DNA of 64,000 nt. Source: Thermoplasmatota archaeon (GTDB lineage Archaea; Thermoplasmatota; Thermoplasmata; RBG-16-68-12; JAGMCJ01). Positions 4,023 to 48,173 of this stretch are shown one piece after another. Under the pieces are notes generated by a model. It was not told the origin of the DNA, did not search any database, and saw only the letters and a program-made list of their open reading frames with translations. Position numbers and translations under genes: made by a program. Every line of letters starts with the position of its first letter. Position 1 is the stretch's first letter. The stretch is taken from the NCBI GenBank assembly GCA_022848865.1, contig JAJISE010000003.1, forward strand, positions 7,189-71,188. The letters run 5' to 3'.

Positions 4023-4202
4023 TTGAGTCTGATATCCATATGTCATATCTGCGGTGCTCCCGCGACACAAACGTGCTCACACTGCGGAAAGCCCGTGTGC
4101 AGAGATGACTTCGATTTCCGCATGACCGTGTGCAAGGCATGCGTCTCCAAGAGGCAGAAGCCCGAAGAACAGGAGAGAACGAGGACACGTCTATTTCAGT
4201 AG
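4023..4202 (+). CDS. Small Cys-rich zinc-finger protein (59 aa, absent from the ORF track)
   Basis: Manual translation from TTG 4023: MSLISICHICGAPATQTCSHCGKPVCRDDFDFRMTVCKACVSKRQKPEEQERTRTRLFQ. Three CxxC pairs plus CxxD. TATA-like CTTTATTT about 25 nt upstream. Confidence 0.75.
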   Translation: MSLISICHICGAPATQTCSHCGKPVCRDDFDFRMTVCKACVSKRQKPEEQERTRTRLFQ

Positions 4203-4682
4203 TCGGAGCGCATCGTCACGCTCTATGCCCAATGCCCTTAACAGATACTCCAGCGACTTCGAGGCTATCATGTCCTTCGTCTGCTCATCGAGAAACCTCT
4301 CCATTATTATGGGTGCCTTTGAATAGTATTGAATGGCGAATTCAGAAAGGTAATATGGAGCGCTGTCAGGGTCGAGTTCGCTGGCCTTGACGTAGAACTG
4401 CTCTGCCTCGTTGAATCTCCCGGCGTCCATGCAGTAAGAAGCGTAGGCCTCGATGTACTGAGGGTTCTCAGGTTCCAGATCTATCGCCTTCTTGTAGAGA
4501 TCGGCAATCTTCTCGGGTTTGACCTTCGGATTCCCGATGCTCGCCTCCGCCTTGCCGAAGAATGCCCTCGCGTTCTCTGGACTCATCTTCGTTGCCTTGT
4601 TGAAATGCTTGAGCGCCTTGTCGTATTCGCACATCCCCAACAGCCTCTCGCCGTCAGCGATTTCTTCCTCAACTTCCTTCAT
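4191..4682 (-). CDS. Tetratricopeptide repeat protein
   Basis: TPR-like helices (ALKHFNKATKMSPENARAFFGKA, YKKAIDLEPEN). GAGAGGA RBS before ATG 4682. Confidence 0.85.
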   Translation of the reverse strand: MKEVEEEIADGERLLGMCEYDKALKHFNKATKMSPENARAFFGKAEASIGNPKVKPEKIADLYKKAIDLEPENPQYIEAYASYCMDAGRFNEAEQFYVKASELDPDSAPYYLSEFAIQYYSKAPIIMERFLDEQTKDMIASKSLEYLLRALGIERDDALRLLK

Positions 4683-4795
4683 GAACAGTCCTCTCAAGTG
4701 TCGTATTGACAACACCGAGATAAAAGTTTGGTCAGGAGTCGTATACCAGATTATCATGGATGATAATTTCGACGAAAGTAGCTTAACAACTCAGA

Positions 4796-7764: not shown

Positions 7765-7904
7765 CTGAGTCGTCTCTGAATGAGGCGATATCCTAATAAC
7801 GTTTCTCTCTCGCTTCCTCCCACGGTTCTCCTGCGCGTTGTGTTGGCCGGGAACCACCATCGCCACGTGAAAAGGACTAATATCTCCGAATCCTTCCTGG
7901 CAGT

Positions 7905-8696
7905 ATGGGGGAGTCCATTGATGCTGATTTTCTCGAGCGGGACAGACACGAGAGAATGAGAAGGATTCCGTGGATAGACCTGGACGCGGTCAGAACCGCT
8001 CGAGTTCTCGTCGTCGGAGCAGGCGCTCTCGGCAACGAAGTCGTGAAGGACATGGTTCTGGCGGGCTTCGCGGGAATCAGTCTCGTCGATATGGACCACG
8101 TCGCCAGGTCCAATCTGACCCGATGCGTGTTCTTCCGTGAGCAGGATTCCGAACGGAGGCGGCTCAAAGCCGAAGTTGTTGCAGGAAGAGCCATGGAACT
8201 CGACCCAGCGGTCAAGATCACACCCTACACCGACAGAATCCAGGATATGCCTGAGGACTTCATCTCCTCCCATTCAATGATCCTCGGCTGCCTGGACAAC
8301 GTGGCCACAAGACTCCATCTGAACGCTCACTGCTACAATGAGGGCATACCATACATCGATGGGGCAATGGACGGGCTGATCGGGAAGGTGCAAGTCGTCC
8401 TTCCACCGGAAACGGCCTGTCTCCAGTGCGGAATGAACAAGACACACTCGAAGATCATGGAACTCAGGTTCAGCTGCACCGGCGAAGATGTCACGTTCTA
8501 CGAGCCCAAGGTCGCCGCAGAGATCACGACAACGAGCATAGTCTCGGCGGTCCAGGTGAGAGAGGCCCTCAAGATTGTGTCCGGAAGAACGGAGGCTGTC
8601 CTGTCCAATGTATTCTACTACGACGGCCTGAGAAACGTCTCAGAGAACCTCGAGGTCTCGAAGAACCCTGATTGCCCACATCATGGGGGGCAGTAG
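7905..8696 (+). CDS. Ubiquitin-activating E1-like enzyme (ThiF/UBA family)
   Basis: VLVVGAGALG nucleotide-binding loop, DMDHVARSNLTR, GCLDN, Zn site CLQC...CPHH and putative catalytic Cys in FSCTG. First gene of the E1-Ubl-E2-JAB cluster. Confidence 0.92.
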   Translation: MGESIDADFLERDRHERMRRIPWIDLDAVRTARVLVVGAGALGNEVVKDMVLAGFAGISLVDMDHVARSNLTRCVFFREQDSERRRLKAEVVAGRAMELDPAVKITPYTDRIQDMPEDFISSHSMILGCLDNVATRLHLNAHCYNEGIPYIDGAMDGLIGKVQVVLPPETACLQCGMNKTHSKIMELRFSCTGEDVTFYEPKVAAEITTTSIVSAVQVREALKIVSGRTEAVLSNVFYYDGLRNVSENLEVSKNPDCPHHGGQ

Positions 8697-8708
8697 TTTT
8701 GTCCCTCC

Positions 8709-8721
8709 GAAAACCTTTAAG
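8709..8721 (+). promoter_or_regulatory. Putative BRE-TATA promoter upstream of the Ubl gene
   Basis: GAAAACCTTTAAG between the E1 stop (8696) and the Ubl start. RBS GGGGAGTGA at about 8745-8753. Confidence 0.5.
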
Positions 8722-8750
8722 AACGCCTCAGGCAATAACTGTACGGGGGA

Positions 8751-8996
8751 GTGATTGTGACAACGAGAATCAGCGTAAAGAACGCGGAAACAGGGTCCTC
8801 GGTCGAGATGGAGTTGGAGGCCGAGAATACAGTCGAAGAGATAATCGAGAGCGCGGCTAGCTACTGGGAGGTCTCTCCTGGGGCCTATGTCCTCCGTCGC
8901 GGCAAGGCGGTTCTGCGCGGACAGTCGACGATTGTGGAAGCGAAGATCCATGAGGGCGACGTGGTCGAGCTGATACCTGACCCTGAGGGCGGCTAG
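8751..8996 (+). CDS. Ubiquitin-like protein with exposed C-terminal diglycine (start may be GTG 8757)
   Basis: RISVKNAETGSSVEMELEAENTVEEI aligns by eye with ubiquitin [25 protein letters not shown]. Ends PEGG-stop. Confidence 0.9.
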   Translation: MIVTTRISVKNAETGSSVEMELEAENTVEEIIESAASYWEVSPGAYVLRRGKAVLRGQSTIVEAKIHEGDVVELIPDPEGG

Positions 8997-9005
8997 GTGC
9001 GGTTC

Positions 9006-9515
9006 ATGGGGCTGCCGAAGGACATTCTGAGGTCCCGCGTGAGAAACGAGGTCCTGATGTGTCAAAGGAATCTCAGGCACGCCATCTCGGTCTCCGATAG
9101 GACTCTTCAGTCCTTCCCGATGGAGGTCAACCTGACACTCGTGAAGACCCCCGGACCCATCTGGAAGGATGACACGATAAAGCATCGATTCACACACAAG
9201 CTGTCGATTCTGATAACTGAGGAGTATCCGTACGAGAAGCCCATCGTCAAGTGGAGGTCAGACGTGTTCCATCCCAACATCATGCTTCCTGGTGATGGTG
9301 GATACGTATGCACCAGGCTCTTGGACGACTGGAGTTTCAACTCGACCCTGCTCACGTTCGTCAAGGGAATCGAAACGCTGCTGACCAGTCCCAACCCCGC
9401 GAACCCCTTCGGTAGCGACTCGTGCACGCGGGCAGCTCAGTACTTCAACACTCACGAGTACAGCCCGCCAAATGTGATTGAGGATTCCAGGAATAAGCCG
9501 AAGATTCTGGGATGA
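9006..9515 (+). CDS. Ubiquitin-conjugating E2 (UBC-fold) enzyme
   Basis: EEYPYEKPIVKW, FHPNI, catalytic Cys in GYVCTRLL, DDWS and LLTSPNPANP mirror the UBC consensus. AGGTG RBS before ATG 9006. Confidence 0.92.
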   Translation: MGLPKDILRSRVRNEVLMCQRNLRHAISVSDRTLQSFPMEVNLTLVKTPGPIWKDDTIKHRFTHKLSILITEEYPYEKPIVKWRSDVFHPNIMLPGDGGYVCTRLLDDWSFNSTLLTFVKGIETLLTSPNPANPFGSDSCTRAAQYFNTHEYSPPNVIEDSRNKPKILG

Positions 9516-9518
9516 TCC

Positions 9519-10139
9519 ATGAAGCGCCCGCGCGTTGTGAGCGAAAGGAAGAGAGCCATCCTTGAGCGGTCGCCACCACCGTCAAATCGGTCCAGCCCCC
9601 ATCTCTGGCTCAAGGATGAGAAGAGGAGCGAGGTCGAGGAAGCACTCGCGGGAACAGGGCCACTTCCTTTGTACATCTCTAGGACCGCCGAGGCAGAGAT
9701 GAGGAATCACAGCATCTCTTCCGGGAATCAGAACCTCGAGGCGATGGGTCTCCTTCTGGGTGATGTCTTCGCTCACTCAAAGAAATCCTACACAGTGGTC
9801 AAGAACGTCGTTACGACGGCGCTCCAGGCATCAGGCGTCTCTGTCAGTTTCCACAGGAACGGGTTCGAAACGCTCTTCGATCGCCTCGACGAGGCGGATT
9901 TCGATTATGTCATTGTGGGCTGGTACCACTCCCACCCCGGATACACTTGCTTCATGTCGCCCAAGGATATTGAGACGCAGCAGCGGATGTTCAGGGAGGA
10001 CTTCCACTTCGCGGTTGTCCTGGACCCGTTGAAGCTGCAGATTGAGGCCTTCACACTCCACGGGGAGGGTTGCATATCCGTACCCTTCGCGATCTACTGG
10101 GAGGAACACGAAGATCCGTACGGAAGGAAGAAGCTCTAG
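9519..10139 (+). CDS. JAB/MPN+ (JAMM) metalloprotease, Rpn11/Mov34-like
   Basis: LEAMGLLLG (catalytic Glu) and VGWYHSHPGYTCFMSPKD (HxH-x7-S-x2-D). Confidence 0.92.
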   Translation: MKRPRVVSERKRAILERSPPPSNRSSPHLWLKDEKRSEVEEALAGTGPLPLYISRTAEAEMRNHSISSGNQNLEAMGLLLGDVFAHSKKSYTVVKNVVTTALQASGVSVSFHRNGFETLFDRLDEADFDYVIVGWYHSHPGYTCFMSPKDIETQQRMFREDFHFAVVLDPLKLQIEAFTLHGEGCISVPFAIYWEEHEDPYGRKKL

Positions 10140-13961: not shown

Positions 13962-14140
13962 GTTTCCATCTCCTCGAGGAATCATGGACAAGAAGATACT
14001 TATGGACTTCGAGGGCAAACCTGAGTTGGGGGCTGGCGGGGAAAATATATATACACGCCATGCCATTAATTCGCATTGTGGGCAGAAACAGAGGTGTGAA
14101 CCTACTGTTTGTTCTGCGGATCTTCCTTGGAGGAGGACTC

Positions 14141-17100
14141 ATGAAGAACGCGGCATCCAGCATTTGGCGTGATTACTGCAGGTTGTTCGCCGTTCTTACT
14201 ATTGTTCTGCTCATGACAAGCCTCGTCGTTGTCGCGAGCGATGACACCCCCGTATCGACTCTAGGGATCTCTTTCAGCCGCCCGAACCAGAATGTGGACG
14301 ATGGATCTGCCAACTCCCGGAATCCAGACATGGCAGTTGATGGTCTTGATGGGATTCACGTTGTGTGGTCCGATGACAGGACCAACTACTATGGAATCTA
14401 TCACTCCAAGTCGACTGACCAGGGATTAAGCTGGCAGGCGTCCATGAGAATCGATTCGGCCCCCATAGCTGCTAACGCCCGAATGCCCTCTATAGCGATT
14501 GACAGAAGTGGAGGGGCCTTCGATGACCGGATGTACGTCGTCTGGCATGAGTCGTCCGTGGCAGGGGGGGTTCACATATTCGCCACCTACTCTGTCAATT
14601 CGGGATCGACATGGGCGTTGCCTCTGCGGATTGACAACGCGGCGCAGGACGTTCTATGCCTTGAGGCGGACGTGGCCGTAGATTCCTCAGGCAATGTCTA
14701 CATTGCTTGGTTTGACAACCGCGATTCCTCCTACAGACACATTTTCGTATCGAAGTCCACAGATGGCGGTATCAGTTTCGGAGCTGAAGTCCAGGTCTCC
14801 TCACAAGATGCGACGAACGCGTTCTCTTCACTGACAACCTTCGGTGACGATGTCTTCGTGTCTTGGAGAGAGCAGGACCTAAGCGGTCTCATAACGCTGT
14901 GGATTGCAGGGTCCAATGACTCCGGTTCCACTTGGACGCCTCATGTGGTTTTCGCCGGGCCGCTAAACTCAATCTCAAGATTCCTTGAGGTGACACCGGA
15001 TTCTAGCGGGATTCTCCACGCAGTCTGGTATTATCAGAATCCTACGGGCGAGAAGGAGATCAGCCATTCGAATTCCGCAGACGATGGCCTGACTTGGTCC
15101 GCGCCAACGAAGGTTGACGACTACGCTTCTTCCACATCGTACACTGCCCCGGACATCGCTTCTGGACCGAGAGGCCTGTACGTGACGTGGAGCGACGATA
15201 GGGTCGGAGATCAGGATGTCTTCTTCTCGCATTCAGAGGACGGAGGCCTTACATGGGGGGACGGGATCCCGAACAACAACGATATCCGTGTTGATGACAC
15301 GGATGCCAACGGGGACCCCTTAGATGACTCCTCATCCCAGACCTACCCGGTGATAGCCGTCGGGACATTCGGCGTCTTCATCGCTTGGGATGACTTCAGA
15401 AGCGGGATGTTCTACGAGATTTACTTCTCTTCGTACGATACTGGACAGATCCTGATAACGGAGCTGAAGGATGCACCGGACAACGCTGAGCTTTTGGAGA
15501 TCTACAACTACGGGCCCCAACCCATTGACATGAGCGGCTACGTGCTCCAAATCGACGCATCACAGGTCTACTCTTTGACCTCATTAGGGATCATACCCGC
15601 GCTGGAGTATCGAACTATCGGTGACGGCCCCGCCGCGGATCTCATTCTTCCAATCGATATAGGCGACCAAGGCGCCAGGCTTCTTCTATTCGATCCCAGC
15701 GTGACGTTAATCGACGAGGTCGACTTCGGCCAGATGGGGACGGTTCCCGACCCGCTTCCAGGGGAGTCTGTGGCGAGGCACATGGTAGGTCTGGGATACA
15801 CCGATGAGTGGGTACGAGAAGAGACGCCGACGTTCGGAGCGGACAACAACGTCCCAGGCATCGATGGTACTCCCGATGTCGTCCTCAACGAGATACTGTT
15901 CTTTCCGAACGCTCCTGATGAGGCCTTCGTGGAGATTTACTACAAAGGGACCAGCCTCGTCAACCTCCTGGGTTACACGATTGTCTGCAACCAGGAGTTC
16001 TTCGTGGGCACAATCACACTCACGGACACCAATCCTCACTACGTGCTGAGGTATCAAATGGATGGCGGTTTCTTTGATTCCATGAGCTCCACTGCCGATA
16101 ATGTCTATCTGTACGATTCGACGGGACAGTTGGTCGACATGGCAGGGTGGAGCTCTCTCCACGCTCAGGGATTCTCAATGACCCGAGATCCTGAGGGGAA
16201 TGGAACCTCAAAGGGCTATGATGATTTCAGCTCCGCCAACGCGGGTTGGAATTTCGACAGGGTTCCGACACTCCCGCTTGTGCTACTTGGCCCTGACCAT
16301 GCCGCAAACGGGGAAGTGGGAGACCGGATACTTCTGAACATGACGGTGACAAACAAGCAGCTAATCCCGGACTATATCGACATAACTCTGGCCAGCGCAC
16401 CAAACAACTGGACGATTGAAATACTACGGGACGATGGCATTTTTCCCCTGCTGGACTCTCTAGGAGATGGTGATGGCATTCCAGATTCTGGACTGCTCAA
16501 TCCTGAGCAATCGCTTCAGTTCAAGATTGGGGTGAACATCCCCTCCAGTCCTCCTGTGGGAAGCTATCAGACGATTGTGGTCACGGCCACCGCCTCGTCA
16601 ATCCTCCTGGCCTCGGACAGCGCAAACATACTCGTAAGGGTATACCCGCATATCGAGCCTATGAAAAGCGTGTCCCCTTCAACGATCTACCATGAAGATG
16701 CGGGTCCTGGCTATCCAACCGTCGCCACCGTTCGGCTTACCGTTACAGGCAACGGCTCTGGCATCGTCAGATCCGTCCCGCAGGATGTGATATTCCTCAT
16801 AGACAAGTCCGGTAGCATGGGAGACTGGCAGAAGTTCGAGTTCGCAAAGCTCGGCGCGAAGAGCTATGTCGACGACATGAAGTTCCCCGATCACGGTGCG
16901 GTGATATTCTTCGACACTTCTGCGATGCGAGTGAACCCGCTCAGCACGGACTACGCGCAGATCAAGAATGACATAGACAGCGTTCTCATTCCTGGCGGGG
17001 GAACCGCGATTGGAACTAGCATATACGCATGCTGGAATGATCTCGTCTCTGATGGCGACCCAGCGCATATCTGGGTTTGCATACTTCTGACCGATGGGAG

Positions 17101-18829
17101 AAGCAATTCGGGCCCAGATCCAATCACTGAGGCTCAGAACGCTGCAGCGAACAACGTCGTGATATACACAATCGGTTTGGGACCGGACGTCGATGATGTC
17201 ACCCTCCAGAACATCGCCGCAATCACCGGGGGTGAGTACTTCTTCGCTGAGACTCCAGAAGATCTGATAGGCATCTACCAACAGATCGGTACAATAGTTG
17301 ATCGGGTGGCGGGAAGGGATCTGGATGTTTCCGACAGTATTCCAATGATTGAGGACGTCGTGCCTTCCTACATACACGTTGTGACGGGTTCTTTCCGGGA
17401 TCCAGCTACGGGTCTTCCGAAGCTCCCAGGTTACTTGGGCAACCGAGGCGTCTTCACGCTCATGCAATGGAATGTGAGTTCTCTGGCGATCAATGAAACC
17501 TGGGAAGTGGAGTACGACATCACGTCCGATCTGATCGGCACCAATCCTGTGGGAGTCTATCCCGACTCCCGCGTTGCCTATGTGAAGTGGGATGGCAACC
17601 AGACCACAGCACCCTTCCCCGAGGTCTTCATAACCGTAACCTACTATGCTGCCCCACCGAAGAACGTCGAGACATACTGGGATGGAGGGAGCAACATAGG
17701 TCTCAAATGGGTCGAAGTGCCCTGGCCCGGGCTGGACCATTACCTGATATTCAGGTCGCAGACCCAGAACGGGTTCCAGGACTTGTCTCCCGCTGCGGCC
17801 TATGGCCTGGCTCCGGCAGGGACGACAGATTGGCTGGATCCTGAAGCGGGAGGAGCGGCCAGCCATGACGGAGAGTACTACTATCTGATAAGGGCAACGA
17901 ATGCCGACGAAAGCGACGTGAGTGAAACCAGCAACACGGCTGGCGCGTGGACGACTACGTTCTCTGCAGGCTTCAACACATTCTCGGTTCCCCTGGACTA
18001 CTTCCCGTGGGCCGAGTATCTCGGACCGACCCGAACGGACACGGCGGGAGAGTACCGGGCAGCCCTTGCTGCGGACTACATTGAGTACATGGAGGCGGAG
18101 CACTGGCTCAGGGTTCCTGGCATCGGCGATTCGGACAGGACCATAGAAGTCGGCGATGGCTGCCTCATGAGCCTCGGATCGGACGTTAGCTTCACATTCT
18201 TGGGTCTGCCCGGGACCATGATCAAGTATGACGAGTTCCCGTTCGGCGGTTTCGACCATACGGGGAATGCCAAGAACATAGAGCTCAGCATCGTGGGGAG
18301 CAACATCAGAATAACCTGGCTGCAACCGATTGGCTCTGACACCTACGACATCTATTACTCGGACAGCAGAGTGGGGTTCTTCGGGAAGCTGGGGACAGAC
18401 TACTGGTTGCTGTACGGTTCCTACGATCCGCCGGTGAATCCCATTGTCAGTGTGGACCACGTGAACGCCCTCCTCCAACCCTACGACGAGTTCTACTACA
18501 TGATCTTCCCTCTGAGCGATTCGCTCGGTCCAGGTTCCGGAAGCTACAGTTCAGGCATATGGATCGGCCGCTTCACACAGGGCTATCAGGCCATTTCACT
18601 CCCACTGAAGCCGTTCGAGAACGGTCTTTATCTCCGCCAGAATGTCTCGTACTACGCCGATTCCATCCTGAATATGCTCGTGATCCTCTGGTACAAGCAT
18701 TCCGAGTCTAGGTGGGTTCCCCATATTCCGGCCATGGAGGCAGGAGTCTACGACAGGGAATTCGCGATGTTCGTCACCCTGAAGATCAACGTTTCATCAG
18801 ATGTGGTCTTTGGGTTTGCTGGAGTCTGA
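14141..18829 (+). CDS. Large secreted multidomain protein: BNR/Asp-box repeats, two lamin-tail-like domains, Ig-like domain, vWA domain, repeated FN3-like C-terminal modules
   Basis: Signal peptide. SxDxGxTW repeats (SKSTDQGLSW, SADDGLTW, SEDGGLTW), ILITELK...ELLEIYN and VVLNEIL...FVEIY, MIDAS motif LIDKSGSM with LLTDG. GGAGGAGG RBS before ATG 14141. Confidence 0.85.
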   Translation: MKNAASSIWRDYCRLFAVLTIVLLMTSLVVVASDDTPVSTLGISFSRPNQNVDDGSANSRNPDMAVDGLDGIHVVWSDDRTNYYGIYHSKSTDQGLSWQASMRIDSAPIAANARMPSIAIDRSGGAFDDRMYVVWHESSVAGGVHIFATYSVNSGSTWALPLRIDNAAQDVLCLEADVAVDSSGNVYIAWFDNRDSSYRHIFVSKSTDGGISFGAEVQVSSQDATNAFSSLTTFGDDVFVSWREQDLSGLITLWIAGSNDSGSTWTPHVVFAGPLNSISRFLEVTPDSSGILHAVWYYQNPTGEKEISHSNSADDGLTWSAPTKVDDYASSTSYTAPDIASGPRGLYVTWSDDRVGDQDVFFSHSEDGGLTWGDGIPNNNDIRVDDTDANGDPLDDSSSQTYPVIAVGTFGVFIAWDDFRSGMFYEIYFSSYDTGQILITELKDAPDNAELLEIYNYGPQPIDMSGYVLQIDASQVYSLTSLGIIPALEYRTIGDGPAADLILPIDIGDQGARLLLFDPSVTLIDEVDFGQMGTVPDPLPGESVARHMVGLGYTDEWVREETPTFGADNNVPGIDGTPDVVLNEILFFPNAPDEAFVEIYYKGTSLVNLLGYTIVCNQEFFVGTITLTDTNPHYVLRYQMDGGFFDSMSSTADNVYLYDSTGQLVDMAGWSSLHAQGFSMTRDPEGNGTSKGYDDFSSANAGWNFDRVPTLPLVLLGPDHAANGEVGDRILLNMTVTNKQLIPDYIDITLASAPNNWTIEILRDDGIFPLLDSLGDGDGIPDSGLLNPEQSLQFKIGVNIPSSPPVGSYQTIVVTATASSILLASDSANILVRVYPHIEPMKSVSPSTIYHEDAGPGYPTVATVRLTVTGNGSGIVRSVPQDVIFLIDKSGSMGDWQKFEFAKLGAKSYVDDMKFPDHGAVIFFDTSAMRVNPLSTDYAQIKNDIDSVLIPGGGTAIGTSIYACWNDLVSDGDPAHIWVCILLTDGRSNSGPDPITEAQNAAANNVVIYTIGLGPDVDDVTLQNIAAITGGEYFFAETPEDLIGIYQQIGTIVDRVAGRDLDVSDSIPMIEDVVPSYIHVVTGSFRDPATGLPKLPGYLGNRGVFTLMQWNVSSLAINETWEVEYDITSDLIGTNPVGVYPDSRVAYVKWDGNQTTAPFPEVFITVTYYAAPPKNVETYWDGGSNIGLKWVEVPWPGLDHYLIFRSQTQNGFQDLSPAAAYGLAPAGTTDWLDPEAGGAASHDGEYYYLIRATNADESDVSETSNTAGAWTTTFSAGFNTFSVPLDYFPWAEYLGPTRTDTAGEYRAALAADYIEYMEAEHWLRVPGIGDSDRTIEVGDGCLMSLGSDVSFTFLGLPGTMIKYDEFPFGGFDHTGNAKNIELSIVGSNIRITWLQPIGSDTYDIYYSDSRVGFFGKLGTDYWLLYGSYDPPVNPIVSVDHVNALLQPYDEFYYMIFPLSDSLGPGSGSYSSGIWIGRFTQGYQAISLPLKPFENGLYLRQNVSYYADSILNMLVILWYKHSESRWVPHIPAMEAGVYDREFAMFVTLKINVSSDVVFGFAGV

Positions 18830-18898
18830 GGTTGTATCGATATGAGCTTCCGTTGTGCTGGAGAGAAGCCAAGCGCCGACCACGCTTCTTGGAAAGCA

Positions 18899-21800
18899 AT
18901 GATGAAGCGGCGGTCGATTGCGGTGTCCTTCCTCGTGCTCCTCACGATCGTGACGCTGGCACAGTCAACGACAGGCCAACCCAAGGAGATGAACTTGGAG
19001 GGGAGGATCTTCCTCTGGGACGACACACCTCTCCAGGGCCTCCCGTGGGAAGACAGCACACCCTTCGCTGTGTGGGTACTTCACAGCGGTTCCTGGAATC
19101 GTTTTCCGAAAGCCGGATGGGTCCTCACCAGCGGTGGCTGGTACGCGTACACGCTTGAGGCGGTTGAGCGGGACGTCAACTGGAGCAACGGTGACACATA
19201 CCGCGTTCAATTGGACGCAACTGCCTTTGGCGGGCTCGATACGAACGCCACAAGCCACGGGACGGGCGACCCCGGTGAGTTCCCCCCCTTCGGGGAGCTT
19301 GAGAATACGATAATGTGGAACGATCCGGACAACACTCAACAGTGGGACGTAGTTGTTCCGATACCAGACCTCCAGCCTTTCGCCATCGCCGTCGACGGAA
19401 TCGAGTATCCCGGTCCCTACGACCCAGCTGTGCCGATAGGACCAATAGTCGTTCTGGCGGGCACTTCCCACGTGGTGGAGGCCAACGTGACGAACGCGGG
19501 GACGCCCTTCATACGAATCCTGAACACAGCCGCGCTTGACGACTCCTGCGGGGCCTTCGAGCACCTCGGGGAGATACAGGAGATAGATGCAGGATCCTCC
19601 GCACCCCCGGGAGCGAGGTTCAGCACGATCTGGACTGCGCCAGCCCTGCCCTTCCTCGGGGACTGCCTCCTCAACTACACTGTGGATTTCTATGACAACG
19701 TGACTGAATACGACGAGGGCAATAACTCTGCAGCGATTCTCCTTCGCGTGGAGGGACCCGACCTCTCGCCAAGCGATATTCTGATTGAAACGCCGTTGGG
19801 AAACTACTCCTACGCCGACCCGTCAATAGCCGTCCCGCCTTTCCATTCTGATGTGATTCCCGTGAACCCAGGCGACGACATAACCATCAGCCTGAACGCG
19901 ACAAACGTCGGCGGATACGAGACCGGCGCGCAGTTCAACGTCGTGATCGTAAGCACGGGGAGCATATCTGGCGGGCCGCCAGTTTCGACACTCTTCAATA
20001 GCGGACAGGTGGGTCCGCTCATGGCGGGCAGTTCGACAGGTCCCTTTGTGTCCAACCTCCAAATCCCCAACCAAACGGGCTATCACTGCCTGAATCTCAC
20101 GGTCGATTACGGTATTGACGGGACTGGAAACATCAGTGAGGTCTCGGAGACGAACAATACGTTCGTCGTTTGCTTTGGCGTGGACGTTCCCGACCTGACG
20201 CCAGTTGACATCGTAGTCGAGCTCCAGGATGGATCAAGCCTCATCTATCCTGACGCATCGGCCACTAACTATGTCTCGGATCCGATCTACGTCTTTCCCG
20301 GGGATCTGATGAACATAACTGCCAGCGTCCGCAACGTTGGGGTCTTCCAGTCCCCAGCGGGCGTCGACACTCAGCTTTCGGTCTACTATGTCGGTGACGG
20401 TCCCTTGAATCCAATCCAGGACCTCATTGCCGAATGGAGCAACGTTCCACCACTGCTTCCAGGTTCTACGGACGGACCCTTTGGGGTTCTCGGGCACAGT
20501 GTCCCCTTTGATATGGGGGACCGGTACATCAACATCACCGTCGACAATAGAAGCCAGATTCAGGAGGAAAGCGAAATCAACAATACGTTCACGATACACC
20601 TTGTCATCGGCGGTCCCGATCTCATCCCGAGCCAGGTCAATCTGACCGTTGACGGCGTGACAACCCAGTACGCGTATCCTCAGACGCCGATTATCGAAGT
20701 GGACATAACCTCTGTCGTTAGCCTGGAAGTCGAGATCGCGAACCAGGGCAACTTCGGGACGAATGGGACGTTCTTCACGGAGTTCTTGGACAACTCAATT
20801 GCCTTTCACTCGAACCTGAGCGATCCCCTGGGTCCCGGTGCAACGAGCCCGATGAACTCCAGCTGGGTCAATCCCGGAGTCCCGAGCCTGCACACTATCA
20901 CTGTAGTCGCAGATTCCGCGAACGAGATTGTTGAGGTGAACGAGTCAAACAACATCTTCACATTGACAATCATCGTCAAAGGTCCCGACATCATCCCGTG
21001 GCAGGTGAATCTGACGGTGGACGGGCTGACAACGCAGTACACTTATCCAGAGACGCCAACCGCAGAGGTGAACATCTCATCCATAGTCCATATCGAAGCA
21101 GCGATAGAGAATCATGGTGGCATCGGAACGAATGGGACATTCCTAACGGAGTACTTCGCTGACTCCGTTGGTTTCTACTCGAACCTCTGTCCGTCGCTGG
21201 GTCCCGGTGAGCGCATCCTGACTAACTCCAGCTGGACGAATCCCGGTGTCCTAGGACTCCACCTAATCACGATAGTGGCTGACTCCGCCAACGACATCGT
21301 CGAGCTGAATGAGACAAACAACGTTTTCACACTGACCATCGTAGTCAAGGGTCCTGACTTGATACCTCTGTATGTCACAATAGACGTGAGCGGGAACAGC
21401 AACCAGTACGGATACTCGGATTCCCCAGTTGGTCCCGTTATTGTAGACATCTCCGACGAGGTTCTCATCGACGTGACCATTCACAATCAGGGAGCTCTCT
21501 CCATCGATATGTTTACCGTAGGATACATCGAAGATGGCCAGCTGTTTGATTTGAGCGGCCCCTTAGGGCCACTGGATGCATCGGCGTCCATTTCTCTGAT
21601 TGACGTCGCTTGGCAGACTCCGCAGTCCTTGGGAGACTACCTTGTTATCATTTCCGTTGATCATTTGGACAATGTATCTGAAATCGATGAGGACAACAAC
21701 GTGTTCGAGATTCTATTCCGCGTTGTCGGTCCGGATCTGATGGCATTTGACTTCCTTGTCGACAATGCGTCCCCCGTCGCCCCAGTTTCCGTCACTGGCG

Positions 21801-22921
21801 GGGAAACTGTGCTCCTCACCGGTATCGCGCTCAACTCCGGAACAAATGTGACTCAGGACAGCTTCTCGGTCTCGGTCTACAACTCAACCGAGAGGGTCAG
21901 CCCGCTTGTACTCGTGAGCGTTCCTCTGCTCCTTCCTGGGGCGTTTCTGTGGTTGAACGCCACCTGGCACGCCCCCATGGACTATCTGAACGTCACCATT
22001 GTCTTCGAGGTCGATTTCTACGATGACGTTCTCGAGGTAGACGAGGCAAACAATGTGCTCGAGGTAGTCCTCATTGTGACCCCACTCCCACCTGACCTCG
22101 TGGCAGTGGGTCCTAAGATCAACGGGCTTCCATATGATGGACCCCATCCAGCCAAGGCAGGTGAAACCCTCACTCTCTCAGCCTCCGTGGTCAACATAGG
22201 GAACTACACTACCGGAGGCCCGTTCGACAACGCGTTCTACAACGATACGATGCCTAGTCTCCCGTTTGCCAGGAAAGTGGAGGGAACGCTAATCGTAGGC
22301 AGGACGACAGCTGAGATCGAAGCCACTTGGAGGGCTCCCGAGAAGGCTGGAACTTACGTTGTCGTCTTCCACGTGGACTACATGGACTCCATATCCGAGG
22401 CGAACGAGACGAACAACAAGCTCTCCTACATAATCGAGGTTGTTGAGGAGGAGGGAGAGTACAACTGGAAACCCCTCCTTGCCCTGATCCTTGCCATCAT
22501 TCTTGTTCTTCTCGGAATCCTCGTCGGATACGTGAGACCTCTCGACAGATTCGTTCCGATACCGGAAGACATGCCGGATGAGGAGATTGATGTGTATAGA
22601 AGGCAGATGAGGAGTCAACCCATAGGAGATAAACTGAGTCCTCTCGACCAGGACGCACTCCTGAGGAAATTCTCTCGAGACAGGATGTTCACGATTGCCA
22701 TCCTTGCCCTTCCTCTATCGCTGCTTGAGATCGCCATCGCAATCCTTTCCAATCTGACAGGCATTCTGAGAGTGCCCGAAGTGGGCAACTGGATTACGGT
22801 GGGATTGGTGGTCAACCTCATAATCCTCGTTGTTGGGATCGCCGTTGACACGATTGCGTCGAAGAAGGGCTATAAGGTGCCATCGGAGATGACTCTTCCA
22901 CCCGAGGCGGACAGCGACTAG
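18899..22921 (+). CDS. Cell-surface protein with about eight CARDB (Ig-like) repeats and a C-terminal membrane anchor
   Basis: Signal peptide, repeated PDL-x-P...N-G...E-x-NE-x-NN motifs, and three C-terminal hydrophobic helices. Confidence 0.85.
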   Translation: MMKRRSIAVSFLVLLTIVTLAQSTTGQPKEMNLEGRIFLWDDTPLQGLPWEDSTPFAVWVLHSGSWNRFPKAGWVLTSGGWYAYTLEAVERDVNWSNGDTYRVQLDATAFGGLDTNATSHGTGDPGEFPPFGELENTIMWNDPDNTQQWDVVVPIPDLQPFAIAVDGIEYPGPYDPAVPIGPIVVLAGTSHVVEANVTNAGTPFIRILNTAALDDSCGAFEHLGEIQEIDAGSSAPPGARFSTIWTAPALPFLGDCLLNYTVDFYDNVTEYDEGNNSAAILLRVEGPDLSPSDILIETPLGNYSYADPSIAVPPFHSDVIPVNPGDDITISLNATNVGGYETGAQFNVVIVSTGSISGGPPVSTLFNSGQVGPLMAGSSTGPFVSNLQIPNQTGYHCLNLTVDYGIDGTGNISEVSETNNTFVVCFGVDVPDLTPVDIVVELQDGSSLIYPDASATNYVSDPIYVFPGDLMNITASVRNVGVFQSPAGVDTQLSVYYVGDGPLNPIQDLIAEWSNVPPLLPGSTDGPFGVLGHSVPFDMGDRYINITVDNRSQIQEESEINNTFTIHLVIGGPDLIPSQVNLTVDGVTTQYAYPQTPIIEVDITSVVSLEVEIANQGNFGTNGTFFTEFLDNSIAFHSNLSDPLGPGATSPMNSSWVNPGVPSLHTITVVADSANEIVEVNESNNIFTLTIIVKGPDIIPWQVNLTVDGLTTQYTYPETPTAEVNISSIVHIEAAIENHGGIGTNGTFLTEYFADSVGFYSNLCPSLGPGERILTNSSWTNPGVLGLHLITIVADSANDIVELNETNNVFTLTIVVKGPDLIPLYVTIDVSGNSNQYGYSDSPVGPVIVDISDEVLIDVTIHNQGALSIDMFTVGYIEDGQLFDLSGPLGPLDASASISLIDVAWQTPQSLGDYLVIISVDHLDNVSEIDEDNNVFEILFRVVGPDLMAFDFLVDNASPVAPVSVTGGETVLLTGIALNSGTNVTQDSFSVSVYNSTERVSPLVLVSVPLLLPGAFLWLNATWHAPMDYLNVTIVFEVDFYDDVLEVDEANNVLEVVLIVTPLPPDLVAVGPKINGLPYDGPHPAKAGETLTLSASVVNIGNYTTGGPFDNAFYNDTMPSLPFARKVEGTLIVGRTTAEIEATWRAPEKAGTYVVVFHVDYMDSISEANETNNKLSYIIEVVEEEGEYNWKPLLALILAIILVLLGILVGYVRPLDRFVPIPEDMPDEEIDVYRRQMRSQPIGDKLSPLDQDALLRKFSRDRMFTIAILALPLSLLEIAIAILSNLTGILRVPEVGNWITVGLVVNLIILVVGIAVDTIASKKGYKVPSEMTLPPEADSD
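20612..21349 (+). repeat. Tandem 369-nt intragenic duplication (two CARDB units)
   Basis: Units start at 20612 and 20981 (GGTCCCGA...CAGGT(C/G)AATCTGAC(C/G)GT(T/G)GACGG...ACAAC(C/G)CAGTAC). The next GPDL unit starts at 21350. Confidence 0.8.
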
Positions 22922-28626: not shown

Positions 28627-30612
28627 CTATTGGGGAATGGCTCTATCGGCTGGTGTCGTCGGTTTCGAGACCAACGCGGCCAGTTTCTCCAGAAGACCCT
28701 CCTTCCTCTTTCCGACGAGCGCGTGCACTAGAACATCCTTGAGAGTCTCGACTGGAATCACTTCGATCTCCCCTATGTACTTGTCCTCCAGCAGGACATC
28801 CTTCATATTGGACTTGGGAATTATCACCTTCTTGAGACCCATCTCTGCAGCCGCCTCTATCTTGGCCGTCACGGCACCAACCGGAAGGACCTGCCCTCTG
28901 ACGCTCAGCGACCCCGTCATTCCGACGCTCTGGTCGACCTCTACATCCTCAAGTGCGGATATCACAGCCGTGGCAACCGATATGGAAGCGGAATCCCCTT
29001 CTGTTCCTTCGCTGCTTCCGACGAACTGAACGTGAATATCGTGATTGCTTATGTCCTGGCCCGTGAACTTCTTGATTAGGGCGGACACGTTCTGCACGGA
29101 TTCTCTGGCTATCTCTCCCAGCTTCCCCGTTGCGATTATCTTCCCGCCATCCTTCGTCTGGGCTGGAGTCACCTCAGCCACAATCGGAAGAAGGATGCCG
29201 GAGAATTCCACCATGCCGCTTGCACCGTGCAGGACCGCCAGACCGTTGACAACTCCGACAGCCTCTCCCTCAACCATGGATGTGGCGTACATCTTCCTGT
29301 CTTCTATTATCCTGTCTGCGATCTGCTGCTCGAGCGACCTGGCAATCTTCTTTCCCCTGTAAACGTGATCAGCTGTGACGAGCGGAGCCTTATCCTCTGT
29401 GGCGATGTCCCCAGCGACTCGGATGAGGCCGCCCAGCTCTCTCAAGCGCAAGGTCAGCCTTCCCTTCCTCCCGCTCCGCCTTCTCGCCTCTCGGAGGATC
29501 TCGGTGACCGCGCCCTTATCGAAGTGAGGGATCTTCTTGTCCTTGGCCACTTCCTGGGCTACGAATCTGATGAGCTTCACTCTGTTGCTGTGCGTGTCAC
29601 TCATGATGTTCTTCATGTAGACCTCGTAGCCGTAGCCTCTTATTCTGGACCTCAGGGCGGGATGCATGCCGGAGACCGCATCCAGATTCCCAGCCGCCAC
29701 GAGTATGAAATCGCAGGGAACGGCTTCTGTCTTCACCATGGCTCCGGAGCTTCTCTCGCTCTGACCGACTATGCTGAACTTCTTCTCCTGCAAGGCGGTA
29801 AGCAGGCTCTGCTGGCTTTCCAACCTCAGCATGTTGATCTCATCGAGGAAGAGAACGCCCTTGTGGGCGCGGTGGATTGCACCCGCGTCCACTCTGTCGT
29901 GAGACGGTGTCTCTAGACCGCCCGACTGGAAGGGATCGTGCTTCACATCTCCAAGGAGAGCGCCGGCATGAGATCCTGTGGCATCGATGAAAGGCGGAAG
30001 ATCATCAGGATCGTGGGACACCAGCAGTTTGGGTATCATCATGGCCTCCTGCTTGCGTCCAGTATATCTTGAGAACATGAAAACTATGACTGCTATCAGA
30101 ATGCCGATCATCAGTGGCGTGGGGTCGAAAGAAATCGCTCCGCTGGCGCTGTCGTACCTTATGGAGAGCATTACGGCCAGCCCCACGATTATGAACATGA
30201 TGGTCATCATTAGAGAGGCTTTTTGCTCCCTTCTCTGCATGGCCTCTGCTTTCTGGGCACCCACTATTTCCTTTCCCTTGCCAGCGGGCACTACCCTTAT
30301 CCTAGGCTCATTTGGGTCGTCAGGGTTGTGATAGACGAGAATGTCCTGGAGCTCTTCCTTGGAGAGCAGCTCCACCATGGAGTTGGCGAGCATCGACTTT
30401 CCAGTCCCTGGATCGCCTATGAGCATCACATGCCTTTTCTGCTCTGCGGCCTTCTTGATGACCACAACGGACTCGTCCTGACCTATCACCTGTTCCACGA
30501 GGCTTGAAGGTATCTCTATTTCCGCAGTGGACTCGATGTCCTGACCCACCATCCACTCATCTATCGGAGGCAAGTCCTCATCATCTGAATAGTTCGCGGG
30601 CTCCCCACTCAT
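28627..30612 (-). CDS. lonB: Archaeal membrane-anchored ATP-dependent protease LonB
   Basis: Walker A GDPGTGKS, two-TM insertion, LFLDEI, catalytic EGDSAS (Ser) and VTAKIEAA (Lys). Confidence 0.96.
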
Positions 30613-34256: not shown

Positions 34257-35828
34257 TCATTCCGAGCCAAAGAACCCTCTCAGAACCGGGTGCATCTCCA
34301 TCATCTGTTCTCTGCCCATCGCCTCGTAGAACTGGATCAATATGCCCACAGCTAGCAGAACCCCCGTTCCGCTGGCATTTCCGACAGTCCCTAACAAGTC
34401 TGCACCCGCGGCCAAGGAGCCGACAGCCGCTCCGCTAATGACCGTCACCACGGGGATATACCTTTCCAGCACTCTCCTGAGAACTCGCGGGTCCCGCCTG
34501 AACCCTGGAATCTGCATCCCGCTACCCTCAATCTGCTTGGCAACCGCTTCCGGTCCCATGTTTGTAGTCTCGATCCAGAACTTGGCAAAGATTATCGAGC
34601 CTACGACCATCACCCCCACGTAGATTAGAAGGTGAGCCACCACCTGCACATACGAGTGGCCTCTCAGGAGGTGTTCATAACTGTCTGGACCTAAAAGCGG
34701 AAGGAGCCAATCACCCACACCCATCACGGTCGAGAGGTAGTAGGCCACTCCCGTCATGGGCGTCGTACGCGAGATACCTAAAGCCTCCGCGTCCGCTGCC
34801 GACGTTGGGTATGAACCAATCATCCAGTTCTGTCCAACAATGGGCCAGTCCGGGTTGTTCCAGAAGAGGAGGGAGAACATGCTCACGTTTGCCAGCACGG
34901 CCGCCATCAGTATGACCGGTATGTTGGATGCATAGATGAGACGTATCGGATACCTCCCCCTGGCACCTCGGGCAGCGCCGTGCGCCAAGGGAAGCTCGAT
35001 TCTCATGGACTCCGCATAGGCCACGATGAGGAAGATAACCATGGTTCCCACCAAGGCAATCACAGGATTCGGATCCTGGAGGAGAATCTGCTCAAGACCT
35101 CCCTGGGAAACACCAGAAACGCTCATGTTGTTGAGGTACCACATCGTCTTCGGTATGGTCCCCGGGGGCACCCCCCCAGCCTCAGCGGGTATCCAGTTGA
35201 ACGTGCCGACGAAGATCTGCTGAGAGACTCCGCCAGCAATGAACAGGCTGACGCCGCTTCCTATGCCCCATTTCGAGACGACCTCGTCCATCAGGAAGAC
35301 CAGATAGCTACCGATGACCAGCTGGCCCACTATCAGAGAGTTCGCCATCATCTCTCCCTGTCCTGGGGCGAACCCCTCCATTCTCGAAACGAAGTCCCCC
35401 GAGGGATGAAGGAAGCCGAAGACCTGTGGTATGGCTTCCACGACTATCATGATGATGACGAGGAGCTTCTGTGTGCCCTGGTACACGGACTTGTCTTCGT
35501 CGTTGGTCAGGTCAAGCTTGATGATCTTCGATCCCGCGAAGAGCTGCATGATGATGGACCCGGTCACGATTGGACCTATGCCCAGATGCATCAGCGAGCC
35601 CTGTGCCCCAGCCAGGATAGCTCGGAGACTCGCGAATACATCTATGGTTTCTGCCGGGTCAAGACCGTATATGAATACGTTGGTCAGAGCGAAGTACAGG
35701 ACGAGGATGAGAACGACCCAGAGCATTTTGGTCCTGAAGTGGACATGCCCAACGGGCTTCGCAACCGCGGGGAGCCTGTCCGTGATGGGTTTCAGGGCGT
35801 ATAACCTGCTCTTTCCCTCTTCGACCAT
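34257..35828 (-). CDS. secY: Preprotein translocase subunit SecY
   Basis: LGIGPIVT, WGIGSGVSLFI, YASNIPVIL and GTGVLL motifs; last gene of the spc-type cluster. Confidence 0.98.
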   Translation of the reverse strand: MVEEGKSRLYALKPITDRLPAVAKPVGHVHFRTKMLWVVLILVLYFALTNVFIYGLDPAETIDVFASLRAILAGAQGSLMHLGIGPIVTGSIIMQLFAGSKIIKLDLTNDEDKSVYQGTQKLLVIIMIVVEAIPQVFGFLHPSGDFVSRMEGFAPGQGEMMANSLIVGQLVIGSYLVFLMDEVVSKWGIGSGVSLFIAGGVSQQIFVGTFNWIPAEAGGVPPGTIPKTMWYLNNMSVSGVSQGGLEQILLQDPNPVIALVGTMVIFLIVAYAESMRIELPLAHGAARGARGRYPIRLIYASNIPVILMAAVLANVSMFSLLFWNNPDWPIVGQNWMIGSYPTSAADAEALGISRTTPMTGVAYYLSTVMGVGDWLLPLLGPDSYEHLLRGHSYVQVVAHLLIYVGVMVVGSIIFAKFWIETTNMGPEAVAKQIEGSGMQIPGFRRDPRVLRRVLERYIPVVTVISGAAVGSLAAGADLLGTVGNASGTGVLLAVGILIQFYEAMGREQMMEMHPVLRGFFGSE

Positions 35829-47945: not shown

Positions 47946-48173
47946 ATGCACTGTGGCCAGTCGTCACACGCGAGCCAGTGGAATCGGGTTAACTGCGCTT
48001 GGGGTCGATTCTGTCGATCATCGACGGCCTCAAGAGACGCATTCGTGCGGCCCCGTTCCTCACGTCAACAGCGATTCCGCGTGGAACACCTGGGAGTATC
48101 AAATCTGATAACAAGGCAGTCACCTTTATACACGCCTTTCAACAACTTATTGAGCAAGGGGCTGTGCGATTCG

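Follow-up and report, generated by a model that had tools for sequence, protein, structure and literature searches.

Does an archaeon of the Thermoplasmatota tag its proteins by passing a ubiquitin-like protein (Ubl) from an activating enzyme (E1) to a conjugating enzyme (E2), as eukaryotes do? The question is raised by four co-directional open reading frames (ORFs) on the + strand of a Thermoplasmatota archaeon genome, encoding in sequence an E1, a Ubl, an E2 and a JAMM protease at positions 7905-10139 of the 64 kb of DNA analysed here (the window). The original prediction had described these genes as co-directional and tightly spaced, which was confirmed by their intergenic gaps (54, 0 and 3 nt for E1/Ubl, Ubl/E2 and E2/JAMM, respectively); the Pfam domain matches of the E1, the E2 and the JAMM protein lie far beyond chance. 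From the sequence comparisons presented below, we consider it likely that the operon encodes a chromosomal and vertically inherited Ubl-conjugation system of the Thermoplasmata, composed of a minimal E1-to-E2 relay and a dedicated deconjugase. The features concerned are:

7905-8696, + strand: E1, ThiF/MoeB-type Ubl-activating enzyme (263 aa; Pfam PF00899 ThiF, 1.2e-51)
8751-8996, + strand: Ubl, ubiquitin/SUMO-fold modifier (ORF of 81 aa, 79-81 aa with the likely start; ends ...IPDPEGG*)
8997-9515, + strand: E2, UBC-fold conjugating enzyme (ORF of 172 aa, 169-172 aa; Pfam PF00179 UQ_con, 1.7e-13)
9519-10139, + strand: JAMM/MPN+ isopeptidase, Rpn11/CSN5-like (206 aa; Pfam PF01398 JAB, 1.1e-13)
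7869..7883, + strand: putative archaeal promoter, read from sequence (TATA-like TAATAT at 7878-7883 and GAAAAGG upstream of it)

The four proteins of the operon

The motifs on which the prediction relied, namely the ATP loop of the E1, the HPN and Cys of the E2, the HxH-x7-S-x2-D of the JAMM protein and the final GG of the Ubl, are all present and invariant across homologues. Its description of the operon as eukaryote-like holds for the E2, the JAMM protein and the Ubl, which resemble ubiquitin-conjugating (UBC) enzymes, Rpn11/CSN5 and SUMO/NEDD8/ubiquitin, respectively, but not for the E1, whose architecture is prokaryote-like.

The closest sequence matches of the E2 in the PDB are eukaryotic E2s (~1e-11), and its AlphaFold (AF2) model (89.5 in the predicted local distance difference test, pLDDT) adopts the canonical UBC fold: a helix at the N-terminus, a meander of four strands, and helices at the C-terminus. 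Foldseek matched this model to UBE2E1, Rad6 and UBE2S. The residues H92-P-N94, C105, W112 and P132-N-P134, as well as R14 and E18 of the N-terminal helix, are invariant in 36 diverse homologues, and the YPxxxP loop 4 and W112 loop 7 of the UBC surface are also present. The spacing from HPN to Cys is presumably three residues longer than in UbcH5. A weak Pfam match to the ubiquitin E2 variants (UEVs; E = 0.055) and the fact that E1-only conjugation is the archaeal norm could be taken to mean that this protein is a non-catalytic, UEV-like Ubl-binding subunit, with conjugation carried out by the E1 alone as in sampylation. However, UEVs by definition lack the catalytic Cys, whereas conservation in the 36 sequences is 100% for Cys105, for H92-P-N94 and for the catalytic loop around them, and we regard this possibility as very unlikely.

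E2 genes were also observed in other contexts. At one locus (L073:7405-8510), tandem E2 paralogues of 170 and 172 aa have no detectable Ubl, JAMM or E1 gene nearby, and in that lineage the E2 is duplicated and uncoupled from the operon. A separate subgroup of E2s (P0400, L084; L084:7246-8708) has an N-terminal extension of ~78 aa and is encoded by a standalone gene, which in L084 is divergent from genes for an Arf/Ras-like small GTPase and a DUF835 protein, with mutS/mutL and a gene for a 331-aa ThiF protein near it; because these genes stand alone, beside a small GTPase and mutS/mutL, the subgroup was rejected as part of the same system. In P0244 (682 aa) and P0259 (534 aa), an N-terminal E2 domain is fused to regions of unknown nature.

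The JAMM protein is closest in the PDB to yeast Rpn11 (1.3e-14), CSN5 (1.6e-10) and the Rpn11-like protein of Caldiarchaeum (2.6e-10), with weaker matches to AMSH (~1e-4) and BRCC36 (1e-3); archaeal JAMM1 is not among the matches listed, and the NCBIfam desampylase model scores 25.3 bits against a cutoff of 130. Its Zn site (E74, H137xH139-x7-S147-x2-D150) is intact and invariant in 76 sequences, and the N-terminal ~50 aa are basic and poorly conserved.

Sequence matches of the Ubl stay below threshold in Pfam (ubiquitin, PF00240, 2.8e-4; also YukD and ThiS), but the AF2 model (pLDDT 89.8) is a β-grasp fold whose best Foldseek matches in the PDB are SUMO, Hub1, NEDD8, ubiquitin, ISG15 and Caldiarchaeum ubiquitin, at template modelling (TM) scores of 0.80-0.86. 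None of MoaD, ThiS or SAMP occurs among the 50 listed structural matches, and the SAMP1 model of NCBIfam reaches only 14.5 bits at this locus against a cutoff of 60. The sequence 'ELIPDPEGG' is invariant in 36 Ubl homologues, and Lys52 is 97% conserved. The window Ubl stops exactly at Gly-Gly, and therefore needs no processing in this genome. An end exactly at GG is seen in 58 of 75 loci, while the other 17 carry tails of 1-10 aa after the GG, as do 12 of the 36 aligned database homologues; these tails vary (H, Q, KR, FCF, RRLRREAGRR, xCFxKxCL), and the Sysuiplasma-type Ubl ends in GG-QWQSL. Since Rpn11-type maturation explains such tails in Caldiarchaeum, whose Ubl precursors are matured in this way and whose Rpn11 homologue has been experimentally characterised, and in the bacterial Bil systems, whose Ubl ends in a conserved Gly and 0-9 variable residues that are removed by a deubiquitinase (DUB) (PMC10557695), we read the variable tails as what appears to be an independent signature of conjugation and of JAMM processing. 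In three related loci (L071, L076 and L077) the tail is a conserved stretch of eight residues (ACFQKICL, SCFLKTCL and KCFQKICL); this Cys-containing propeptide, unlike the variable tails elsewhere, may be functional itself.

The form of the C-terminus also bears on how conjugates could be sought. The Ubl ends in ...K-IHEGDVVELIPDPEGG, with its last Lys/Arg 16 residues from the end, and trypsin would leave a remnant of 16 residues; the diGly-remnant proteomics proposed with the prediction is thus unworkable with this enzyme, and because the tail reads ...PDPEGG, Glu-C is required to leave a GG remnant.

In the PDB, the E1 is closest to active adenylation domains, namely those of UBA7, UBA1, SAE2 and UBA3 (3e-28 to 5e-22), followed by MoeB (6e-22), ThiF (1e-19) and UBA5 (~1e-11). 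It is a compact, single-domain MoeB/UBA5-like enzyme, collinear with MoeB (249 aa), that lacks a Cys domain, a second (inactive) adenylation domain and a ubiquitin-fold domain (UFD). Among 55 family members, G38xGxxG43, D62xD64, R68-S-N70 and D131 are invariant. The predicted Zn site is likewise present and invariant in the 55 sequences, with the refinement that it is formed by three Cys and one His (C172xxC175 and C257xxH260) rather than by four Cys, and the protein terminates directly after these ligands. The motif R188-F-S-C191-T-G, also invariant in the family, lies within a 27-residue crossover loop, and its Cys191 is the candidate catalytic residue.

These similarities invite a reading in which the Ubl and the E1 are mainly a sulfur-carrier pair for tRNA thiolation or cofactor synthesis, like SAMP2/UbaA, Urm1/Uba4 or MoaD/MoeB, with the E2 and the JAMM protein as accessory or regulatory components. 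The best NCBIfam models for the E1 are indeed ThiF (3e-33) and MoeB (1e-31), the protein is MoeB-sized, and archaeal SAMPs double as sulfur carriers. Nevertheless, the E1 falls below every NCBIfam equivalog cutoff, and far below those of ThiF, MoeB and UbaA (95.7 bits against 450 for the last); there is no rhodanese domain, and the conserved neighbourhood contains no sulfur-metabolism genes; the Ubl fold is that of ubiquitin, SUMO and NEDD8; and both the catalytic residues of the E2 and the Zn site of the JAMM protein are invariant, with the Ubl gene linked more tightly to those of the E2 and JAMM proteins than to that of the E1. A mainly sulfur-carrying role is therefore highly improbable in our judgement, and we retain Ubl conjugation as the preferred function of the operon.

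Distribution, neighbourhood and inheritance

The host had been predicted to be Thermoplasmata-like, and the census agrees: relatives of the E2 are encoded in at least 275 species-representative genomes (GTDB representatives, one genome per species), and the best 80 of these 275, on which the locus counts given here are based, are all Thermoplasmatota metagenome-assembled genomes (MAGs). At 90% identity the E2s form 302 clusters, nearly all of them from MAGs named Thermoplasmata, Thermoplasmatota or 'Euryarchaeota RBG', and several were already labelled 'ubiquitin-conjugating enzyme E2' by NCBI or JGI. In an exhaustive profile search, 29 representatives reached E ≤ 1e-30 and 97 reached ≤ 1e-10; the more divergent full-length members come from Ca. 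Methanomethylophilaceae and Ca. Sysuiplasma MAGs. The operon is also present on the complete MAG chromosomes CP070767, CP070736, CP070732 and OY970070. No cultured carrier was found, and the Methanomethylophilaceae E2 homologues all come from MAGs or metagenomes. In view of the number of species, of the names at NCBI and of two earlier works (Fuchs 2018; the 2023 preprint 10.1101/2023.07.25.550441), the view that this lineage is not usually associated with such enzymes does not stand; the accompanying suspicion that sporadic systems might already have been reported was right about the prior reports and wrong about their being sporadic.

The synteny survey of Thermoplasmatota MAGs that had been proposed found Ubl-E2-JAMM contiguous in 77-78 of the 80 loci and the E1 gene linked to them in 55. 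SIS, TIM, L18e, L13 and S9 genes lie downstream in 41-49 loci and trpS lies upstream in 40. Even the Sysuiplasma-type and Methanomethylophilaceae loci have genes for ThiF, UQ_con and JAB proteins and for a Ubl of 85 aa, followed by (SIS-)TIM and L18e-L13-S9-RpoN, and pheS-trpS is also kept upstream in the Sysuiplasma-type locus.

For the vertical history of the operon, pairwise distances of Ubl+E2+JAMM were compared with those of L18e+L13+S9 in the 41 loci having both gene sets, whose GC content spans 30-70%. The two sets of distances are strongly correlated (Pearson 0.956, Spearman 0.89; 0/2000 permutations in a Mantel test), their mean divergences are nearly equal (0.39 for the operon and 0.37 for the ribosomal proteins), and the distances of the E1 also follow those of the ribosomal proteins (Spearman 0.85). 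A scan of 2.9 million viral contigs in IMG/VR found no viral relatives. Taken together, conserved synteny, co-divergence with ribosomal proteins and lack of viral relatives indicate that the operon is a core function of the chromosome, passed on vertically over a long time and kept by strong purifying selection. The housekeeping role inferred in the original prediction is well supported by the same co-divergence and lack of viral relatives, by the wide distribution and fixed neighbourhood, and by the lack of any defence signature.

These observations bear directly on whether the operon could be an antiviral or anti-mobile genetic element defence module, analogous to Bil (BilABCD) or to Cap2/Cap3 of the type II cyclic oligonucleotide-based antiphage signalling system (CBASS). 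Its four parts (Ubl, E2, JAB DUB and E1) are those of Type II Bil, the order Ubl-E2-JAB is that of bilA-bilB-bilC, and there are weak, partial PADLOC matches to CBASS E1-E2 and JAB models. Such matches, however, are generic domain matches of at most 44.7 bits which leave the Ubl unmatched. The Bil E1 is a pseudo-dimer of inactive and active adenylation domains (IAD and AAD) with an inserted Cys domain (CYS) of ~80 aa, and the Bil E2 is of the CEHH type and has no HPN (PMC10557695), whereas the window encodes a single-domain E1 of 263 aa and a classical HPN E2; E1 and E2 are, moreover, separate genes here and not a Cap2-type fusion. Bil is sporadic and defence-linked, as the bacterial systems are sporadic and mobile, in contrast with the core, syntenic and vertically inherited system of the Thermoplasmata, and neither viral-contig relatives nor effector, CD-NTase or other defence genes in the neighbourhood were found. 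A Bil/CBASS-type defence role is unlikely, and we give next to no credence to a defence module at this locus.

In the window, trpS and pheS lie upstream on the opposite strand, and downstream there are convergent genes for HxlB (159.6 bits; cutoff, 160) and for a xylose-isomerase-like TIM-barrel protein, followed by L18e-L13-S9-RpoN; the trpS, pheS and hxlB flanks are as predicted, with no defence or mobile genes seen. Homologue N-termini suggest that trpS would start at 7764 rather than 7866, the Ubl at GTG 8757 (MTTRI...) and the E2 at ATG 9006 (MGLPKD...), and the latter two starts are preceded by Shine-Dalgarno-like GGGGGAG or AGGTG. The TAATAT of the putative promoter lies ~25 nt 5' of the E1 ATG and is preceded by GAAAAGG, a purine-rich sequence resembling a transcription factor B recognition element (BRE), a position that implies a transcript that would be leaderless or have a short leader. 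As to a chimeric or contaminant origin, GC content is even across the window (0.51-0.58), a separate MAG contig (JAGMAI010000095, 'Thermoplasmata archaeon RS_14_3') has a 99% identical E2 and identical gene order, and a second assembly (JAJISH010000119) has a 98% identical E2. Because an independent MAG shows this identity and order, the region is neither chimeric nor an artefact, and its host is a Thermoplasmata archaeon.

Some variation in the neighbourhood deserves mention. Among the 45 loci with enough sequence, 31 have L18e-L13-S9(-RpoN) within 5.5 kb 3' of the JAMM gene. The layout takes at least three forms, with the cluster reached through hxlB-TIM, placed immediately next to the operon in L016, or turned around behind lysS, and the aminoacyl-tRNA synthetase genes trpS, pheS, hisS and lysS recur beside the operon; this recurrent translation-gene neighbourhood could reflect phylogenetic inertia or a link to translation. 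Many loci have extra genes between trpS and E1 or after JAMM (for a secreted protein, a 4HBT thioesterase, MttB-like and M29/NicX-like proteins and a secreted protein of 384-411 aa), which we rejected as components since they are unrelated and absent from the window. In an E1-less lineage (L082/L083:3387-5609), a Roadblock/LC7 gene followed by genes for an Arf/Ras-family GTPase and KaiC-like ATPases lies ~4-6 kb 5' of Ubl-E2-JAMM, as a eukaryote-signature-like small-GTPase module of Thermoplasmata.

Elsewhere in the window, a gene for the archaeal LonB protease (AAA+ and Lon_C domains; 28627-30612) lies ~18 kb from the operon, and the ORFs that were scanned included no recognised proteasome or Cdc48 gene; searches for tRNAs and Rfam RNAs in the window were negative. 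Four very large ORFs (14060-18829, 18842-22921, 47946-53864 and 54121-58617; 1359-1972 aa), the first with a hydrophobic N-terminal segment and a vWA-like 'DxSGSM' motif, presumably encode secreted or surface proteins. GC and AT skew both reverse abruptly from the 46-48 kb bin to the 48-50 kb bin (~47.8-48.0 kb), where a minus-strand ribosomal-protein block (L3, 46786-47784; SecY, 34257-35828) gives way to large plus-strand ORFs; this switch is probably a gene-strand effect.

The proposed conjugation relay and the E3 question

The domains and invariant motifs of the four proteins suggest the following course for conjugation. The E1, which like MoeB, UbaA and UBA5 is probably homodimeric, would bind ATP and adenylate the C-terminal Gly81 of the Ubl, which would then be moved as a thioester onto the candidate Cys191 of the crossover loop, a position not matched to a known catalytic Cys. 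Trans-thioesterification to Cys105 of the E2 would follow, as suggested by the invariant HPN and Cys and the conserved E1-binding helix, and aminolysis on the E2 could then place the Ubl on target lysines, either directly without a ligase (E3) or with a specificity factor encoded elsewhere. The Rpn11-like JAMM protein would undo the isopeptide bond and, in the approximately one-fifth to one-third of lineages with tailed precursors, would also mature the Ubl. The tag itself might be a proteolysis signal or a regulatory one.

The expectation of a three-step conjugation system was not borne out, as no E3 was found. A regular expression for RING/cross-brace patterns was run on every ORF with a minimum length of 40-45 aa, both in the window and across the 80 loci (with flanks of 8-10 kb); it returned no canonical match, and no further co-conserved gene family linked to the operon was found. 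Because there is neither a RING ORF nor an additional co-conserved family, we conclude that the locus encodes only the E1-to-E2 relay, and that conjugation is either E3-independent or served by an unlinked factor. The second option would amount to a full E1-E2-E3 cascade of the kind known from Caldiarchaeum, Asgard archaea and eukaryotes, with a RING, U-box or other E3 elsewhere in the genome. The E2 does retain the canonical UBC surfaces (the N-terminal helix, loop 4 and loop 7), the view is limited to 64 kb of this genome and to the flanks of the related loci, and there is a Cys-rich ORF at 4023-4202 with weak B-box/zf-HIT similarity. On the other hand, no RING-pattern protein or co-varying gene family accompanies the operon, the similarity of the Cys-rich ORF is below all Pfam cutoffs, the ORF is missing at the equivalent site of a distant syntenic lineage, and operons of this kind have been classed as lacking an E3 (Fuchs 2018). 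An unlinked E3 is thus possible but doubtful.

The Cys-rich ORF (59 aa; CxxC-x7-CxxC-x4-C-x10-CxxC) overlaps convergently with a gene for a 188-aa TPR protein (4023-4757), and the pair is kept 5' of pheS in the nearest relatives (L001, L004-L009) and absent in L081. Its matches to B-box, zf-HIT and double-zinc-ribbon domains are all sub-threshold, it has no NCBIfam match, and an unrelated AAA/TPR gene takes its place in L081; for these reasons it was rejected as a supported candidate for an E3.

Several points weigh against a conjugation relay as we propose it. The E1 has neither the UFD nor the Cys domain by which canonical E1s recruit and charge their E2s, and it scores about as well against the sulfur-transfer models ThiF and MoeB as against eukaryotic E1s. 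The cysteine of the 'GVCAAS' motif of UBA5, which we take to be the catalytic Cys250, pairs with the Val of 'PKVAAE' and not with Cys191, albeit in a single weak alignment; when only the C-terminal half of the protein was aligned against the PDB in order to place Cys191, all matches were non-significant. In 21 of the 80 loci no E1 was detected near Ubl-E2-JAMM, approximately five of which have the contig end near the Ubl; the gene 5' of the Ubl varies in E1-less loci and no alternative activating enzyme was found there. The E1 gene thus need not be linked to the other three, and its part could be taken by a general E1 of the UbaA type. Finally, the lack of a detected E3 leaves the selection of substrates unexplained.

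Two known enzymes indicate how the relay could nonetheless function. UBA5, which works with UFC1/UFM1, charges a dedicated E2 although it consists of one adenylation domain with a Zn site and carries its catalytic Cys on a short crossover loop, not in a Cys domain. It recruits this E2 through a C-terminal peptide, however, whereas the window E1 ends right past its Zn ligand. The Bil E1 also lacks a UFD; the Bil E2 binds to an element at the C-terminus of this E1 that the Zn site makes rigid, and no E3 takes part (PMC10557695). This precedent shows that an E1-E2 relay can work with neither an E3 nor a UFD.

Relation to known systems and significance

In the sampylation of Haloferax volcanii (SAMP/UbaA/JAMM1) there is no E2, and the SAMPs are MoaD/ThiS-like. 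The window operon shares with it a compact single-domain MoeB-like E1, a GG-ending Ubl, a JAMM deconjugase and an archaeal host, and differs in having an E2 and a Ub/SUMO-like Ubl, with the UbaA, SAMP1 and desampylase models all far below their cutoffs. The closest characterised system is the operon of Caldiarchaeum and Asgard archaea, which comprises ubiquitin, E1-like, E2-like, small RING E3 (srfp) and Rpn11-like proteins (Nunoura 2011; Hennell James 2017; Fuchs 2018; PMC3082918, PMC5654768, PMC6043591). Common to both are a GG-ending β-grasp modifier (TM 0.84-0.85 between the window Ubl model and Caldiarchaeum ubiquitin, CsUb), a UBC-fold E2 with HPN and Cys and with an N-terminal E1-binding helix bearing an invariant Arg, a Rpn11-like JAMM protein, the organisation as an operon, and tailed Ubl precursors in some members. 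The window operon differs in having no RING E3 (srfp), in making its Ubl already mature, and in belonging to the Thermoplasmatota ('Euryarchaeota') instead of TACK or Asgard lineages. As to the E1, the ATP loop, the Zn site and the candidate Cys191 are invariant, and a single weak alignment does not pair Cys191 with the UBA5 cysteine taken as catalytic. The JAMM protein of the window, being nearer to Rpn11/CSN5 than to AMSH/BRCC36, fits the intermediate 'JAMM-3' group and not the CsRpn11 class.

The 'JAMM-3' group was described as more Rpn11/CSN5-like than other prokaryotic JAMMs and as found in Ub/E1/E2 operons without an E3 (Fuchs 2018; PMC6043591). The window operon has the same content (Ub, E1, E2, JAMM and no E3) and the same JAMM profile, with strong Rpn11/CSN5 and weak other matches, and it is probable that the Thermoplasmata family corresponds to this group, whose taxa are not named in that paper. 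A 'Ca. Thermoplasmatota E2' clade also branches deeply in the archaeal E2/UEV tree of the 2023 preprint. For Euryarchaeota, only a Marine Group II single-cell genome had been reported by Grau-Bové et al. (2015). In the literature searched, we found no paper on the Thermoplasmata operon, its synteny or its biochemistry. The system has been noticed only in passing before, and since its pieces were already annotated and it is not a new kind of system, its novelty is limited.

Its interest lies elsewhere. Reviews of the origins of ubiquitin centre on Caldiarchaeum and Asgard archaea, whose operons include an E3, and on mobile bacterial defence systems with divergent E2s. The Thermoplasmata family differs from both: its four genes, with no E3 among them, form a core kit that is inherited vertically and extends across a large euryarchaeal class, including the methanogenic Methanomethylophilaceae, and it pairs a textbook HPN E2 and a Rpn11-like protease with a MoeB-sized E1. 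Reconstitution would show whether a single-domain E1 without a UFD charges a canonical E2 and whether that E2 is able to select substrates unaided by an E3; since the proteins are small and confidently modelled, their expression should be easy. It would also help to settle whether tagging by E2s is older than the Asgard/TACK lineage. A bolder reading, which we put forward only tentatively and think rather unlikely, is that the operon represents an E3-independent stage of the eukaryote-type ubiquitin cascade, ancestral to the class and possibly acting on the translation apparatus, a target hinted at by its persistent position near aminoacyl-tRNA synthetase genes and L18e-L13-S9-RpoN. If true, an HPN E2 and a Rpn11-like protease would have been coupled to a MoeB-sized E1 outside TACK and Asgard archaea, either E2-dependent tagging arose deeper in Archaea or an ancient transfer is documented here, and the Thermoplasmata would possess a minimal natural system in which to study how E2s functioned before E3s.

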